Position numbers and translations under genes: made by a program
The notes under the pieces: model-generated
What the model was told of the DNA's origin: nothing
What the model saw: only the letters and a program-made list of their open reading frames with translations
Databases searched by the model: none
Virus record (IMG/VR): IMGVR_UViG_3300025528_000005
Coordinates: 69,139 to 133,138 of that record
Origin: a virus
Strand: one strand, 5' to 3'
Length of the DNA: 64,000 nucleotides
Part shown: positions 18,618-40,401 of the stretch, piece by piece
Position numbering within the stretch: the stretch's first letter is position 1
How the letters are laid out: the number at the start of each line of letters is the position of its first letter

Positions 18618-18627
18618 TGGTATAAGA
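18618..18627 (+). promoter_or_regulatory. Plus-strand island promoter (TGGTATAAGA)
   Basis: Same motif precedes seven plus-strand units; resembles an extended -10 element. Confidence 0.7.
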
Positions 18628-35419: not shown

Positions 35420-35965
35420 GGGCAGGTTCTGTCCAAGTCTGTCCAAAAACGGCAGGACAGGGAGCTTTGCGTTTTTCCTTATAAATCAAGCACTTTCAGA
35501 TTTCGCGTCCAATTTGTCCAATTCTCTCAGAAAAATTGGACACACGAAAACCCTTGTGGATAAAGGGAAAGATAGTGATTTGTCCAAAAATTTGGAATTT
35601 TTAGGGAAACATACATATCACTTTACTTTTGACCCTTAGAACTTGTGAAATCATTCTCCTCTATATATATAAATATAAATATTTTTTAAAACCTCAAATA
35701 TAATAATATATAAAGAGGGCCGTATTTTTTGAATTCTAGTGAGTTGAGCTCATAACAAACCTGATATATGTTTTCCTGAAAAAGGCAAATTTTTGGACAA
35801 ACTGGGACTTTTCCCTTTATTCATGCGGGGTTTCGTGTGTCCAATTTTTCTGAGGGAATTGGACAGCCAGGACAGAACCTGCATTAAGTCCTTGATTTTC
35901 AAGAAGTTTTTGAAATTTAAACTTGGACAGCTTTTTGGACAGTCCAGGACAAACCTGGACAGTCG
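35420..35965. repeat. Probable replication origin: inverted arms with TGTCC/GGACA iterons around an AT-rich core
   Basis: About 14 iteron copies; an imperfect inverted repeat of about 80 bp (35515-35592 vs about 35787-35865); a perfect 13 bp IR at 35422-35434/35870-35882; A/T core at about 35661-35715. Confidence 0.75.
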
Positions 35966-35997
35966 AGGCTTCCAACCTTCTTTCTTCGTAGGTAACC

Positions 35998-36438
35998 ATG
36001 CTAGAAGACCCCTTCATTGGAACCAAAATAGAACTTCTAACTGTTCTAAGCCGAGACTCAGAGCGGTCCTCTGGAACGGCTCTCTACTACCATTGCCGGT
36101 GCATTTGCGGAAACACGAAGTCCTTTCTTAAGCAGCGGTTAACCTCTGGCAGGGTTTACTCCTGCGGGTGTTCCAAGCCGGCACAGAAAAGACGAGTCTT
36201 TGAGCCTGGCTTAAAGCTCGGCCTCTGGACCTTGCTCGAGAAGGATTCCGACAGGTCGAACAAGTCTGTTGTTTACTGGAGGTGCCAGTGCGACTGCGGG
36301 ACCGTCAGATCTGTCTCCTCCCCTAGCCTGAGTGCCGGCCTGTCCCAGTCCTGTGGTTGTCTTCGAAAGTCCGGGAACCGGAAGGTAACCTCGCGGCTCG
36401 GCCGACCTCGAAGCCGCAGTACCGAGAGTCAAGAATAA
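35998..36438 (+). CDS. Cys-rich tandem-repeat protein (DNA-binding module of HNH/AP2 homing endonucleases, no nuclease domain)
   Basis: Two copies of L(T/W)(V/T)L...(Y/W).C.C.CG.....L..G.(S/V).SCGC. Confidence 0.7.
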   Translation: MLEDPFIGTKIELLTVLSRDSERSSGTALYYHCRCICGNTKSFLKQRLTSGRVYSCGCSKPAQKRRVFEPGLKLGLWTLLEKDSDRSNKSVVYWRCQCDCGTVRSVSSPSLSAGLSQSCGCLRKSGNRKVTSRLGRPRSRSTESQE

Positions 36439-36447
36439 TGAACTTTC

Positions 36448-36457
36448 TGGTATAAGA
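36448..36457 (+). promoter_or_regulatory. Promoter of the RT unit (TGGTATAAGA)
   Basis: Recurrent motif. Confidence 0.7.
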
Positions 36458-36459
36458 GG

Positions 36460-36550
36460 ATTGCAGCGAGGCCTTCGCTGTAAAGGTGCTCCCCTGTCGT
36501 GAAACAGTGTAGTATTCGCCGCAAGGCAAAATGTGTTGTATCATAGGGGA
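36460..36550 (+). ncRNA. Candidate RT-associated structured RNA, 5' part
   Basis: Hairpin TGCAGCGAG-GCC-TTCGCTGTA, GCC-GCAA-GGC GNRA hairpin, and segments complementary to 38241-38300. Confidence 0.45.
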
Positions 36551-36559
36551 ATAGCTTAC

Positions 36560-36688
36560 ATGCATCGTTTGATCGCTATTCTTCGTCTCACCCAAAAGGT
36601 TCTGACGTTGGCTGCACGGATCGTTGCCGTGGCGCTAGTCGTCGTGAGCCAATATGTTGGGCTAGACGAATCTAAAGCTACTGCTTAA
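36560..36688 (+). CDS. 42 aa hydrophobic peptide (not in the ORF track)
   Basis: AGGGGA RBS; MHRLIAILRLTQKVLTLAARIVAVALVVVSQYVGLDESKATA. Confidence 0.45.
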   Translation: MHRLIAILRLTQKVLTLAARIVAVALVVVSQYVGLDESKATA

Positions 36689-36756
36689 TCGCTCTTTTTT
36701 CGTTTAGCTCTGTTAGCAACCGCGGTTAGTAACTGACCGCTTCATCGAGGTTCAAG

Positions 36757-37377
36757 ATGGAAAGTCTGACAACCTCGGCAAGGAATGTGCCGAAGATGTC
36801 TACTCCAACTCTGGAGGTTCGAAGGAACTACTACGTCATTCCGGATGGTCAAAGATACCACTACTTCCCTATCACGGTATCTGACGACCGTGAACGACCG
36901 TTTATAAGGTTCTCTAAGGCTCCTCCCGTCCTTATGGAGGGTATCGCCATCATAGGAGAACCCAGGTCCCGGAGAGCGCCTCGTCTGTATCACGTCCCTT
37001 TGCAGGACCTGATGCGTGGCCTCATTCGTAAATCCAGAGAGATCAAACCTGCTAATCGAGTAGCGACCAATGGAAGTACAGGAAACCCAACAGACCACAA
37101 CTCCTCAGACGGTTCAGACCAGGCGACAACTTCGACTGGCGGAGAATGTGCCGATAGAACCGTTCAACGTGTCGACCAACAGCGAGCTGGCGACCTTATT
37201 GAAATGGAAGTCTGCGAAGCTGCTGACCTTGCTTGGACGGAACAAATCGACGCACTACTCCACCATCTATCTGAAAAAGAAGGGGAAGAGTGGGAAATTG
37301 CGGATCCTGCACAATCCAGACAGGTTGATGAGAGCAGTGCAATACAGGATCTTGAAAGAGATTCTGGAGAAAGTTGA
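36757..37377 (+). CDS. Hypothetical protein overlapping the RT 5' end (or structured RNA)
   Basis: GAGG RBS and a plausible first 100 aa; the last 308 nt overlap the RT in another frame. Confidence 0.4.
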   Translation: MESLTTSARNVPKMSTPTLEVRRNYYVIPDGQRYHYFPITVSDDRERPFIRFSKAPPVLMEGIAIIGEPRSRRAPRLYHVPLQDLMRGLIRKSREIKPANRVATNGSTGNPTDHNSSDGSDQATTSTGGECADRTVQRVDQQRAGDLIEMEVCEAADLAWTEQIDALLHHLSEKEGEEWEIADPAQSRQVDESSAIQDLERDSGES

Positions 37378-38206
37378 AGTACCTGGATACATCCATGCTT
37401 TTGAGAGGGGCAGGAGTATCCCGACCATGGCTCGAGCTCATGTTGGCAAAGGCCTGGTCATTAGCATTGACCTAAAGGATTTCTTCACCTCTATCAAGCA
37501 GTACCATTTGTTTCAGATTTTCAAGCACCTGGGTTTTGGAGATGCACCGGCTCGGACCCTCTCCGAGCTCTGCACCTATCAAGCCTTCGTCCCGCAAGGC
37601 GGGTTGACCAGCCCCAAGCTGAGCAACATCGTCACGGCGCTGACGTTCGGACCGATTCTCAAGGAGTATTGTGACCGGAACGGCTATACGATCACAATCT
37701 ACGCGGATGACGTTACGATCTCGGCGAACGAAGATCTGATCGGCAAATACGGGATTGGTGCTGTTGAAGAAATCCTCCAATTTGTATCAGACACGGTCTC
37801 CTCCTTCGGCTTCCGAGTGAACCGCAGGAAGACCAAACTGATGCGCCCTTTCCAACGACAGTATGTATGCGGCGTCGTTGTGAACCGCACGATCAATCTG
37901 CAAAAAACTGAGCGTCGCAAACTCAGAGCCATGGTGTACAACGTGAAGCGTCACGGTGTCGAAGCAGAGGCCGCACGCAGCGGTCTCACGCCGAGCGCGT
38001 TCATCAGTCGACTCATGGGGCGATTGAACTGGTTCAGCCAGCTGAATCCCGAAGCTGGTGCTCGCTTGTTGTCAAAGCTTAGAGAAGTCGTTGAGGAGCA
38101 AGGCCAACCCAACGCCAGAGCTGGAGAAGTAGAAGCGATTGTGTCTTCAGACAGCTCAAGCACCGCACCAGGTGCCTCGACCGCATCCGATGCGCCCTGG
38201 AGCTAG
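37070..38206 (+). CDS. Retron-type reverse transcriptase
   Basis: K.R.L.NP, HAFERGRSI..MARAH (NAxxH-like), DLKDFFTSI, PQGGLTSPKLSN, YADD, and VCGVVVN (VTG-like); no maturase or endonuclease domain. Confidence 0.92.
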   Translation: MEVQETQQTTTPQTVQTRRQLRLAENVPIEPFNVSTNSELATLLKWKSAKLLTLLGRNKSTHYSTIYLKKKGKSGKLRILHNPDRLMRAVQYRILKEILEKVEVPGYIHAFERGRSIPTMARAHVGKGLVISIDLKDFFTSIKQYHLFQIFKHLGFGDAPARTLSELCTYQAFVPQGGLTSPKLSNIVTALTFGPILKEYCDRNGYTITIYADDVTISANEDLIGKYGIGAVEEILQFVSDTVSSFGFRVNRRKTKLMRPFQRQYVCGVVVNRTINLQKTERRKLRAMVYNVKRHGVEAEAARSGLTPSAFISRLMGRLNWFSQLNPEAGARLLSKLREVVEEQGQPNARAGEVEAIVSSDSSSTAPGASTASDAPWS

Positions 38207-38400
38207 TTTTCTAAGGTCTTTCTAGGCAAAAAGACCCGGTCTGTTTCACGAACGCACCAATTCCTGCAACTGCAGTATCCTTCGTTAAAGGGGGAGAGCA
38301 TTATGGGTTACACAATCCCGGGCCCGCAGCCGGCCCGCTCACAGGCTGCACCAAGTTCAATGTCTCAGTGTTAGCATCATAGACGAAGATCAGCGATATT
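38207..38400 (+). ncRNA. Candidate RT-associated structured RNA, 3' part
   Basis: GGTCTTT/AAAGACC and GCAGCC/GGCTGC hairpins; CTGTTTCACGA is complementary to 36497-36507. Confidence 0.45.
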
Positions 38401-38428
38401 GCTCCGGGGAAACCCGGAGCCTCTTTTT
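38401..38428 (+). terminator. Terminator of the RT unit
   Basis: GCTCCGGG-GAAA-CCCGGAGC-CTCTTTTT. Confidence 0.8.
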
Positions 38429-39533
38429 AGCCTAGATGAACTCCAGCTTCGTCTACAATGACGAAGTGACCGGATTTTCTCATCTCCACCGAGCCACTCT
38501 CTATTGTAAATGTGCCTCCATCAAACTCTGATTGGATGCCGCTTGAATTCATGATGGTTGTAGCGCCATCTTCGTGCTCTAAAAGAATCTTCTCTCCGTC
38601 AATCGTGACGATTTGGCGATCATCGAAGTTCGCCTGAATCATTGATTCGTTGATCGTAATGGTATTCCGATCTCCGAAGCTAAAGGTAAGCTGAGCTCCG
38701 GTCGCCTTCATCCGGGTGAACGTCCCTCCGGCTTTGATCCAGACTTCCTCATTCCCATTGAGCTCGACCGTTCGGCGCATAATCTCTTCGCCGCCGTCCG
38801 TGATCTGCTCCTTGAAGATCACTGAATTCGTCCCCGGAGCTGATCCTGCGTTTTGATGATCTGTTTTTATAGCTTCGGCTAAGGCCGTATCTCCGTAGTA
38901 GAGGTGATACTGATAGTCCTCAACCTTGCTGCTGGCAAAGCTATTCGTGTACCCCGTATATCGGTAGATCCGACCACGAAGGTTCTTGATCACGTCAGAC
39001 GATACGTCGGTGAAGTGCTCCCAGTTTCGAGACACAACCCTAACCAGGTCGTCCAACTTCGACAGGAAAATCTCTGAGAGCCTCGAGCTTCGCAGTAGAA
39101 CGGATCCGGCTCGAAGAAGGGCTACCATGCCTCCACCTATCGATGACAGGACACGATCACCGACCACCATGTCTCTAGGCTTGTTCTGGTCACTGGATAT
39201 GTTGGTGCCGCCTGGATTGTAGTTTCCAGTATCGATAAGCGTCTGTCCGGTATCGATTGAAATCGGGAAGGCATCGTGGGCTGCCTGAATTCGACCTAGG
39301 TAACCAGTGATCACCGGGTAGCCCAAGGTGTAGTCAAGCTTCACTCGATCCCCTAGCATTGGGGTTACCCTATCCCCTGCCCTGCTCGCCCCTCCCGAGA
39401 GCTGCTCCCACTGAACCCCATCCAGGTTCTGTCCTGAGAGAGTCTGGACTTTACAAACACGTCGATTGGGATCGACTTGTAATACGGTTCCTTCGTCGAA
39501 GTCCGAGTTAGGTTTTACTGGGTTCTTGAACAT
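38427..39533 (-). CDS. Baseplate central spike (gp5/gpV-like OB fold plus beta-helix)
   Basis: G.V..VDP.RR.CKV...P..GDRV.L....GYP OB pattern; C-terminal ITINES/VTIDGE/TTIMNS/FTIESG beta repeats. Confidence 0.75.
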   Translation of the reverse strand: MFKNPVKPNSDFDEGTVLQVDPNRRVCKVQTLSGQNLDGVQWEQLSGGASRAGDRVTPMLGDRVKLDYTLGYPVITGYLGRIQAAHDAFPISIDTGQTLIDTGNYNPGGTNISSDQNKPRDMVVGDRVLSSIGGGMVALLRAGSVLLRSSRLSEIFLSKLDDLVRVVSRNWEHFTDVSSDVIKNLRGRIYRYTGYTNSFASSKVEDYQYHLYYGDTALAEAIKTDHQNAGSAPGTNSVIFKEQITDGGEEIMRRTVELNGNEEVWIKAGGTFTRMKATGAQLTFSFGDRNTITINESMIQANFDDRQIVTIDGEKILLEHEDGATTIMNSSGIQSEFDGGTFTIESGSVEMRKSGHFVIVDEAGVHLG

Positions 39534-39546
39534 GCGGGCCGAGTAA

Positions 39547-39555
39547 TGGTATAAG
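39547..39555 (+). promoter_or_regulatory. Plus-strand island promoter (TGGTATAAG)
   Basis: Recurrent motif, divergent from the spike gene. Confidence 0.6.
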
Positions 39556-39618
39556 TAAGGTAGGAACGGAGTTTGCCGCTCCGCGTAATCATTTTAACAA
39601 TACCTTCTCCTTCAAATC

Positions 39619-40401
39619 ATGAAAATCCAGATCAAGTCGGATCTCCATAAGGAGACCCGTCCACAGGCCTATCGTGCCCAGGATGGGAATAGTAAATCCA
39701 TTATGCACCCGGATGCTGACATACTCATTCTTGCCGGGGATATTACCGACTACGCCAATCGTTTTGCCCTATATCACGAGCTCACGCGCTTCGATCGCCC
39801 AATCCTTTACGTTCCCGGCAATCACGAGTACTACCGGGCCGATCACGTCCGATTCGTGCTCCCGGAGCTCAAGGCTCTCTACAAGGGTACCAACGTCACC
39901 GTCCTCGATCGGGACTTCGTGAACATCCGAGGTGTTGCCTTCATCGGGGCGACGCTCTGGACCAATCTCACGGATCCGCTGAAGGCCGAGTCGGCCAGGA
40001 ATTCCTTGAACGACTTCCGTGTGCCTGGTCTTGATCCTGGCTGGTATACGATGCAGCACATCGAGGCGGTCAAGTTCCTCAAGCAAGCTTTGGAGTTGCA
40101 CTCGCATCTGAAGCGAGTCGTGATCACTCATCATGCGCCGAGCCACCTCTCGATCCATCCGCGATACGTCAACAACCAGCTGAACTGCTGCTTCGTTTCA
40201 AACCAGTCGGACCTGATGCTCGATTATGAGCCGCAGCTCTGGGTTCATGGACATACCCACGACCCTTTCGATTACAACATCGGTAAGACCCGTGTGATCT
40301 GTAATCCGAAGGGTTATCCCGGTGAAAAGGCACAGACACGCCTCTCTGATCCGGAGCCGCCTACCCTTATCTACAACGAGGACCTCATCGTCGAAATCTG
40401 A
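39619..40401 (+). CDS. Calcineurin-like metallophosphoesterase
   Basis: SDLH, LAGD, PGNHEYY, THHAP and HGHTH motifs. Confidence 0.92.
   Translation: MKIQIKSDLHKETRPQAYRAQDGNSKSIMHPDADILILAGDITDYANRFALYHELTRFDRPILYVPGNHEYYRADHVRFVLPELKALYKGTNVTVLDRDFVNIRGVAFIGATLWTNLTDPLKAESARNSLNDFRVPGLDPGWYTMQHIEAVKFLKQALELHSHLKRVVITHHAPSHLSIHPRYVNNQLNCCFVSNQSDLMLDYEPQLWVHGHTHDPFDYNIGKTRVICNPKGYPGEKAQTRLSDPEPPTLIYNEDLIVEI

Follow-up and report, generated by a model that had tools for sequence, protein, structure and literature searches.

Within a stretch of 64,000 nucleotides of viral DNA (positions 69,139 to 133,138 of IMG/VR virus record IMGVR_UViG_3300025528_000005; the whole stretch is referred to as the window), we identified a phage-specific, previously unclassified, retron-like module of three genes, encoding a small peptide (SP), a predicted partner protein (ORF-X) and a reverse transcriptase (RT), whose messenger RNA (mRNA) has ends that are complementary across about 1.75 kb in a helix that covaries among related loci. 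The module is a single transcription unit (36448-38428, + strand) comprising promoter, leader, SP, ORF-X, RT, trailer and terminator, and its RNA of about 1.95 kb carries the three genes together. The interpretation that we favour, which is tentative and falls slightly short of an even chance, is that the module is a retron variant most similar to type VI: the entire operon mRNA would take the place of the hybrid RNA, the long-range stem would correspond to the a1/a2 repeats, and a hairpin in the trailer would serve as the first template. A preliminary description of the same DNA had reported the promoter at 36448, the terminator at 38401, open reading frames (ORFs) of 42 and 206 amino acids (aa) and the RT, all of which we recovered with the same coordinates and sequences.

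The leader segment TCGTGAAACAG (36497-36507) is the exact complement of the trailer segment CTGTTTCACGA (38241-38251; 11/11 positions), about 1.75 kb away, and GGTGC (36485-36489) and GCACC (38254-38258) form a pair nested outside this 11-bp helix, so that, as had been proposed, the arms flank all three ORFs. Taken within the window alone, the 11-mer is unremarkable, being one of 7 inverted pairs of like length in 3.7 kb, and we therefore gathered syntenic relatives for comparison. These were obtained by exact-protein look-up (L001-L009) and by alignment-based scans of viral contigs (L010-L037) and metagenomes (L047-L097); a nucleotide search of the phage collection and a single-protein scan of viral contigs each returned 0 relatives. 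Pairing was assessed by exact and ungapped complement searches, with shuffled sequences and swapped partners as controls. In the relatives, a leader segment 24-49 nt past the promoter motif complements, over 11-14 nt without mismatch, a segment 10-110 nt past the RT stop codon. At these fixed positions we identified at least 12 sequence versions of the helix (TCGTGAAACAG in the window, CCATGAAACAG in the 80% identical locus L001, and at least 10 more), each of them significant against shuffles (p <= 0.015 for every version). Complements of at least 11 nt were found in 17 of the 49 distinct cognate pairs versus 29 of 2352 swapped pairs (about 1%), the latter being mostly close relatives with a common variant or A/T runs, and cognate arms paired at 10-13 of 13 positions versus a mean of 5.6 for swapped arms. 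Because complementarity persists while the sequence varies, in at least 12 variants at the same positions, the pairing goes beyond chance, and on this comparative evidence the leader/trailer helix is real and selected.

The stem consists of 11-14 bp plus an outer helix of 5-6 bp across an asymmetric internal loop. Equivalents of the outer pair are kept in other lineages (CAGGC/GCCUG or GGGC/GCCC), always with the asymmetric loop between. In every clade, only 10-35 nt separate the 5' arm from the predicted RNA start, a placement like that of a1 in retrons. On the RT tree, 14 of 14 tested members of the window's clade carry the stem, and it occurs in four other clades as well. At its inner end, the helix of the window's clade has a Y.U mismatch followed by opposed G residues, and in this clade only, the G located 2 nt after the 5' arm faces the G before the 3' arm, an arrangement reminiscent of the pair of facing Gs in the a1/a2 stems of retrons (PMC7736814). 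In the same clade, the trailer hairpin lies 2-6 nt 5' of the 3' arm, with 4 of its 7 pairs altered on both sides and 80% of cells paired; RNAalifold gave no consensus for this A-U-rich hairpin, and the pair counts on the named structure are moderate support. The stem could plausibly stand in for a1/a2 in a split msr/msd, as the preliminary description had suggested. Two further contacts proposed there fared less well: the third pair (36457-36466 with 38270-38281) was rejected, being absent even from the 80% identical L001 and situated for the most part ahead of the RNA start, and the contact between TGCTCCCCT and AGGGGGAGAGCA is conserved weakly, with about 4 bp left in other lineages.

Profile searches place the RT among retron enzymes. 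It matched Pfam RVT_1 (2.8e-22) and the PADLOC retron RT models over a range from 1e-68 to 1e-37, the scores being 1.4e-68 for RT_XIII (230 bits), 2.7e-68 for RT_III-A (228 bits), 2.5e-62 for RT_II-A and 1e-56 for RT_VI (190 bits), and its nearest solved structure is the retron Ec86 RT (7.8e-32). Every match to the NCBIfam retron models was under the curated cut-off. The retron RT hallmarks, NAxxH in region X and VTG in region Y (Mestre et al., PMC7736814), are present in variant form, and in an alignment of 16 relatives YADD, H124 of region X and G268 of region Y are invariant. By these matches, the RT is a retron-clade enzyme outside all of the catalogued types.

An equivalent of SP, a hydrophobic or amphipathic helix of 36-59 aa, occupies the same place in every locus of the family, and searches of Pfam, PHROG and PADLOC returned no match for SP. 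The earlier statement that no recognisable toxic effector is present was therefore wrong, in that this family-wide peptide fits the small-protein toxin logic of type VI retrons (bioRxiv 10.1101/2025.10.22.683967), an analogy by which SP is predicted to be toxic. ORF-X is also conserved, with 261 representatives among 1.84 billion proteins. Its AlphaFold (AF2) model consists of a beta-barrel (residues 10-100, pLDDT, the predicted local confidence measure, >=95), a disordered linker and a long acidic helix (residues 149-175); Foldseek searches of PDB and AFDB gave no convincing relative (E > 0.1), and VIA-align reached a Z of at most 4.6, against generic split barrels and PilZ-like folds. As SP, ORF-X and the convergent gene downstream have no PADLOC, Pfam or NCBIfam match, no catalogued effector of types I-XIII was found among them.

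In nearly all loci whose RT is at least 45% identical, the 3' end of the ORF-X gene and the start of the RT gene share 190-370 nt, with the RT always in frame +1 relative to ORF-X and the third frame closed across the overlap. When RT codons were shuffled synonymously in 25 loci, just 0-2% of trials at each locus left the ORF-X frame open, which shows that the overlap is under selection. A separate ribosome site and ATG serve the RT at most loci, often straight after an in-frame stop, and the RT hence starts independently and not by frameshifting. Structure prediction of the complex placed ORF-X residues 149-187 against RT residues 66-95, 110-117 and 176-182, YADD (211-214) and VCG (267-269), with a score of 0.69 compared to 0.00 for the best of three controls; 58 of 80 solved complexes and 2 of 110 mismatched pairs attain this mark, counts that apply only approximately here because the prediction was made with our own alignments. 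ORF-X is thus predicted to bind the RT, with its acidic C-terminal helix in the RT cleft. The nucleotides 37201-37317 encode both the ORF-X helix region (149-187) and RT residues 44-83, and RT residues 66-83, overprinted by the ORF-X helix, are among the predicted contacts, such that both sides of the modelled interface come partly from the same DNA.

The limits of the unit are supported by the promoter motif and by assembled RNA. The extended -10 motif TGGTATAA at 36448 occurs 6 times in the window versus 0.6 expected, on the + strand every time, and stands before the homologous unit in most relatives; the full sigma-70 consensus had no match at the 36448 promoter, and a generic sigma-70 scan found no promoter. 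One contig of 1923 nt (36472/3 to 38394/5) is present in each of two metatranscriptome runs, which come from different studies; its ends match the predicted start (about 36463) and the terminator, and it includes both pairing arms, as far as contigs of public runs, which cannot prove transcription, strand or ends, can indicate. The flanks of the unit were absent from these two RNA libraries or on separate contigs, and in two DNA runs one contig spans the unit together with its flanks. The retron profiles, the conservation of the promoter and the 1923-nt contigs agree with the earlier proposal of a phage-encoded retron-type RT in its own transcription unit. The six copies of TGGTATAA (window positions 18618, 22093, 26111, 36448, 39547 and 49214) each precede a + strand gene block, and the motif is likely the promoter of one temporal gene class in this phage.

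The genome that carries the unit is that of a tailed phage, with large terminase, head maturation protease and tail sheath genes in the window. The virus record comprises 168,216 bp (about 92% complete) and contains a single copy each of the RT and the trailer. The cassette is found at one syntenic site in all relatives, and in divergent phages it lies beside the same convergent gene and a metallophosphoesterase gene. Of 185,579 prokaryote species genomes, 1 contained a relative with at least 40% identity, on a 2.9-kb contig of a metagenome-assembled genome, and the remaining matches were ordinary bacterial retron RTs (<=35% identity). Across the genomes searched, the RT module family is in effect phage-only.

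Additional RNA elements bear on the expression of SP. In a fold of the leader on its own, the SP ribosome site is paired to the C-rich loop that separates the two 5' arms. SP codons 5-10 take part in a second long-range helix, with the segment just before the terminator, and this helix recurs with other sequences in L008/9 and in L010-L013/L049, giving 3 sequence variants in total. The hairpin upstream of ORF-X shows compensatory changes in 8 of 8 pairs (RNAalifold, 18 loci) and is present also in clades without the long-range stem. The trailer comprises about 220 nt, its body folds better than shuffles (z = -2.4), and its conserved hairpins carry compensatory changes. No compact msr-msd was found in the leader or beside the RT. 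A 23-aa ORF in the trailer (38303-38374) was rejected as a gene, its length (8-30 aa) being unconserved and its ATGG lying inside a conserved hairpin. In the leader, a 7-codon upstream ORF (36526-36549; ATG TGT TGT ATC ATA GGG GAA TAG) ends inside the SP ribosome site, and its start is preceded by AGGCAAAA, which is also the loop of the trailer hairpin. In L008-L015, L049, L032 and L035 the sequence of this loop directly repeats that of the SP start region; the repeat fails in L001, L007 and L078 and holds in the window only with the upstream AUG. As a lead only, complementary DNA (cDNA) of the trailer hairpin may be antisense to the SP start, by analogy with what has been proposed for type VI.

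Comparison of the module to known systems shows the closest likeness to type VI retrons, exemplified by Retron-Vpa2 and Retron-Sen3, which consist of a hybrid RNA, an SP toxin, a helix-turn-helix (HTH) protein and an RT (bioRxiv 10.1101/2025.10.22.683967, 10.64898/2026.04.27.721009). There, a 470-nt hybrid RNA holds the msr-msd together with the frame of a small toxic protein between a1/a2-like repeats, the HTH protein represses reverse transcription, and multicopy single-stranded DNA (msDNA) derepresses translation of the toxin (SP) (bioRxiv 10.1101/2025.10.22.683967). The phage module has the same order of structured leader, small hydrophobic peptide, regulator protein and retron-clade RT; its peptide frame likewise lies inside an RNA closed by a1/a2-like repeats, with the ribosome site masked by structure, and its protein partner is likewise proposed to restrain the RT. 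However, the phage repeats span the whole operon (about 1.75 kb vs. about 470 nt), the leader is without a compact msr-msd, the partner is a beta-barrel with an acidic helix and not an HTH protein and overlaps the RT gene by about 300 nt, the RT has its best matches to the XIII and III-A models (a class assignment by profile score), and the carrier is a large phage and not a bacterium. Given the operon-wide stem, the lack of a compact msr-msd, the non-HTH partner and an RT that by profile score is not of type VI, we regard the module as a retron variant of its own and not a member of type VI.

With canonical retrons (13 types, Mestre et al. 2020, PMC7736814), the module shares a retron-clade RT with regions X and Y in variant form, an inverted repeat whose first arm is close to the RNA 5' end, a hairpin just ahead of the second arm, and Gs facing each other at the inner end of the stem. 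In contrast to their non-coding RNA (ncRNA) of 150-250 nt upstream of the RT, the phage repeat encloses three frames and the RNA runs 60-190 nt past the 3' arm; the module also has no catalogued effector family. Retron-related RTs of head-tail phages also appear as the viral retron-like clades RTC3 and RTC5 in a metagenome survey (PMC13681634), whose sections on these groups give an RT phylogeny alone, with no RNA, partner genes or mechanism.

We infer a mechanism, modelled on type VI retrons, that would connect stem priming, cDNA synthesis, SP toxicity, ORF-X inhibition and a biological role as follows. The closed RNA would keep SP untranslated, the C-rich leader loop masking its ribosome site and the trailer pairing with its first codons; in the window's inner clade, the second helix would clamp the SP coding start to the RNA 3' end. 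ORF-X would restrain the RT by occupying the nucleic-acid cleft with its acidic C-terminal helix. Upon a trigger, the RT would prime at the inner end of the long-range helix and copy the adjoining trailer hairpin, and synthesis might continue into the 3' end of the RT gene. The cDNA, or cleavage of the template by RNase H, would then remodel the clamp, SP would be made, and the membrane would be damaged. The role of such a device could be phage-versus-phage exclusion or infection timing. In its complete form, this amounts to an inside-out retron, in which the stem closes the full operon mRNA, a G in the leader primes the RT, which copies from the 3' trailer in the direction of its own gene and perhaps into it, a membrane peptide is turned on by the cDNA, the overprinted acidic helix of the partner throttles the RT, and the whole serves as an early-gene weapon of large lytic phages and not as a bacterial defence; the conjunction of these steps is possible, but we regard it as doubtful.

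Several observations weigh against reading the operon mRNA as a hybrid RNA of a type VI-like retron. No cDNA or msDNA was observed, contigs, the sole data type, being unable to show such DNA. The stem is missing in about half of the RT family, and several such loci are without any trailer (L004 and L005, for example, with 55 nt after the RT); the RT therefore cannot depend universally on the main helix. Outside the window's clade, no G is strictly conserved at a set offset, and some clades have the 3' arm right next to the RT stop codon, which would make coding sequence the template there. The second helix crosses the main one, which requires a pseudoknot or alternation between the two. The candidate msd hairpin (7 bp) is much shorter than known msd stems, Rfam returned no retron RNA match at its gathering or E-value threshold, and ORF-X is not an HTH protein (no HTH family match, and a model with a beta-barrel and one long helix).

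The strongest alternative is that the pairing of the 5' and 3' ends serves post-transcriptional control only, closing the mRNA, blocking SP translation and protecting the 5' end, while the RT uses another RNA, e.g., the hairpin upstream of ORF-X or an RNA of the host or of a competitor. End-to-end control of mRNAs has precedents in the fold-back inhibition of hok mRNA and in the pairing of the 3' and 5' untranslated regions of icaR. As in these, the mRNA of a small hydrophobic peptide would be closed end to end with its initiation region as the target; unlike the phage module, hok and icaR have no RT and enclose one short gene, and no antisense small RNA partner was found for the phage module. 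Purely regulatory pairing is favoured by the clade-limited spread of the stem, which contrasts with the universal presence of SP, ORF-X and RT and with the intact RT of trailer-less loci, and by the absence of cDNA evidence. It is also consistent with the wide conservation of the hairpin upstream of ORF-X, the most widely conserved RNA element of the module (8 of 8 compensatory pairs), with the targeting of the SP initiation region by both the second helix and the C-rich loop, and with a contig of its own in RNA libraries, as expected of a stabilised RNA. It leaves unexplained, however, the fixed-loop hairpin right beside the 3' arm, the opposed-G junction and the association of the pairing with a retron-clade RT, the known relatives of which all prime from such a stem. 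We consider this explanation a serious one, if doubtful in its own right.

Alternatively, the trailer could be a separate small RNA, either a riboregulator resembling a type I antitoxin or a retron ncRNA downstream of the RT, that is processed or has its own promoter and pairs with the leader in trans at two sites. In trans, the crossing helices pose no topological problem, and the trailer is structured, with conserved hairpins. In L025 (3586-3800), the TGGTATAAG promoter lies directly after the RT stop and is accompanied by a structured trailer of about 200 nt, which may be a separate RNA gene in that locus; the clade of L025, however, is without a leader complement. The window has no promoter motif inside the RT 3' end, and the RNA-library contig is unbroken from leader to trailer in two runs, such that a trans-acting trailer appears unlikely.

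The preliminary description had also raised the possibility of a self-copying or mobile retroelement, in which priming by the RT at the stem would yield a cDNA of the entire cassette that spreads or builds genes. Enclosure of the coding region by the stem would suit such an element, as a processive RT starting from the 3' arm would enter its own gene. Against this stand the single copies of RT and trailer in the 168-kb genome, the one syntenic position beside the convergent gene and the metallophosphoesterase in divergent phages, the absence of the family from 185,578 of 185,579 prokaryote species genomes, and DNA and RNA contigs without joints or alternative junctions; we regard mobility as very improbable. 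That the complement arose by chance, or is a DNA-level inverted repeat such as a recombination site, is scarcely credible despite the 7 similar inverted pairs in 3.7 kb, because recombinase sites would keep their sequence whereas here the sequence varies and complementarity is kept in at least 12 variants, and because no relative or contig shows an inverted arrangement.

Other assignments were considered and set aside. A permuted model, in which the trailer would act as msr and the far 5' end of the leader as msd, is less likely, as most clades have just 10-20 nt ahead of the 5' arm. A group II intron RT was rejected (TIGR04416, 46.6 bits vs. a cut-off of 300; no intron RNA in Rfam), as were a diversity-generating retroelement (no direct repeat >23 nt in 35900-39600) and a DRT/UG RT (the best 25 of 46 PADLOC matches are all retron RT models, and Drt2 gave E = 0.009 and 15 bits vs. 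a cut-off of 390). The coordinates of all elements of the module are collected in Table 1.

Table 1. Elements of the retron-like transcription unit, with positions in the window
Feature	Position	Strand	Description or evidence
Extended -10 promoter TGGTATAAG	36448-36456	+	Predicted start near 36463; motif upstream of the unit in most relatives
5'-terminal leader hairpin	36462-36482	+	In minimum-free-energy and centroid folds; L001 keeps the stem with other sequence (CAACAG/CTGTTG)
5' arms of the main helix	36485-36507	+	Outer GGTGC 36485-36489, C-rich internal loop TCCCCTG, inner 11-mer 36497-36507; covary with trailer arms, at least 12 variants
SP, 42-aa hydrophobic/amphipathic peptide, candidate toxic effector	36560-36688	+	Ribosome site AGGGGA 36545-36550
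Second helix, 5' arm (SP codons 5-10)	36572-36588	+	15/17 complementary to 38381-38397
Hairpin upstream of ORF-X, 8 bp, triloop UAA	36722-36740	+	17 nt upstream of the ORF-X start
ORF-X, 206 aa, predicted RT partner	36757-37377	+	Beta-barrel, disordered linker, acidic C-terminal helix (model)
Dual-coding overlap, ORF-X C-terminus (frame -1) over RT residues 1-103	37070-37377	+	Frame openness and shuffles
Reverse transcriptase, 378 aa	37070-38206	+	YADD 37700-37711; region X MAxxH; region Y VCG
Trailer hairpin, candidate first template	38215-38236	+	Conserved loop CURGGYAAAA; immediately 5' of the 3' arm
3' arms of the main helix	38241-38258	+	Inner CTGTTTCACGA, bulge AC, outer GCACC; covariation with leader arms
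Structured trailer body	38259-38380	+	Purine-rich motif 38287-38300 and conserved hairpins; folding z-score -2.4
Second helix, 3' arm	38381-38397	+	Just before the terminator; complement of SP codons 5-10
Intrinsic terminator	38401-38428 (terminator proper 38401-38420)	+	Common to the unit and the convergent 368-aa gene

Directly upstream of the RT promoter, a 146-aa ORF (35998-36438) encodes an HNH endonuclease (PHROG 374, 1.9e-20); no gene was called at this position in L002 and L005, and the ORF is probably a homing endonuclease insertion. Further upstream, the DNA assemblies of two runs branch at 35807-35849, within a region rich in GGACA/TGTCC repeats (window positions 35800-35850 and 35420-35965), and about 20 metagenome or virus contigs of relatives stop 100-900 nt upstream of the RT unit; the repeat near 35800-35850 may therefore break assemblies, or mark a genome end or origin. 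Downstream, the convergent gene (38427-39533, - strand; 345-373 aa in relatives), to which no function is assigned, shares a bidirectional terminator with the RT unit, and it is followed by the metallophosphoesterase gene (39619-40401, + strand; PHROG 1649, with a weak match to PADLOC PDC-S10); both come after the RT unit in most relatives examined. The region of the second helix 3' arm (38375-38388) is 86% complementary to 38447-38460, past the terminator and within the end of the convergent gene, and this pairing would give a larger hairpin around the terminator, in DNA or in read-through RNA.

A compact ncRNA upstream of the RT is what defines a retron, and a natural priming-type stem around 1.7 kb of coding RNA, if true, would widen this definition, since the msr-like and msd-like parts could then sit far apart on one RNA. 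Such distant parts would be directly relevant to DNA writing by retrons when templates are long or remote. The conserved overlap, about 300 nt long, offers a rare clean case of overprinting whose function can be tested, with the N-terminus of the RT in one frame and, in the other, a helix predicted to plug that same RT. The arrangement further offers a testable route by which reverse transcription may control a small toxic peptide, and its nearly phage-only spread raises the question of what use a retron-type RT is to a virus, whether in the exclusion of rivals, in counter-defence or in timing.

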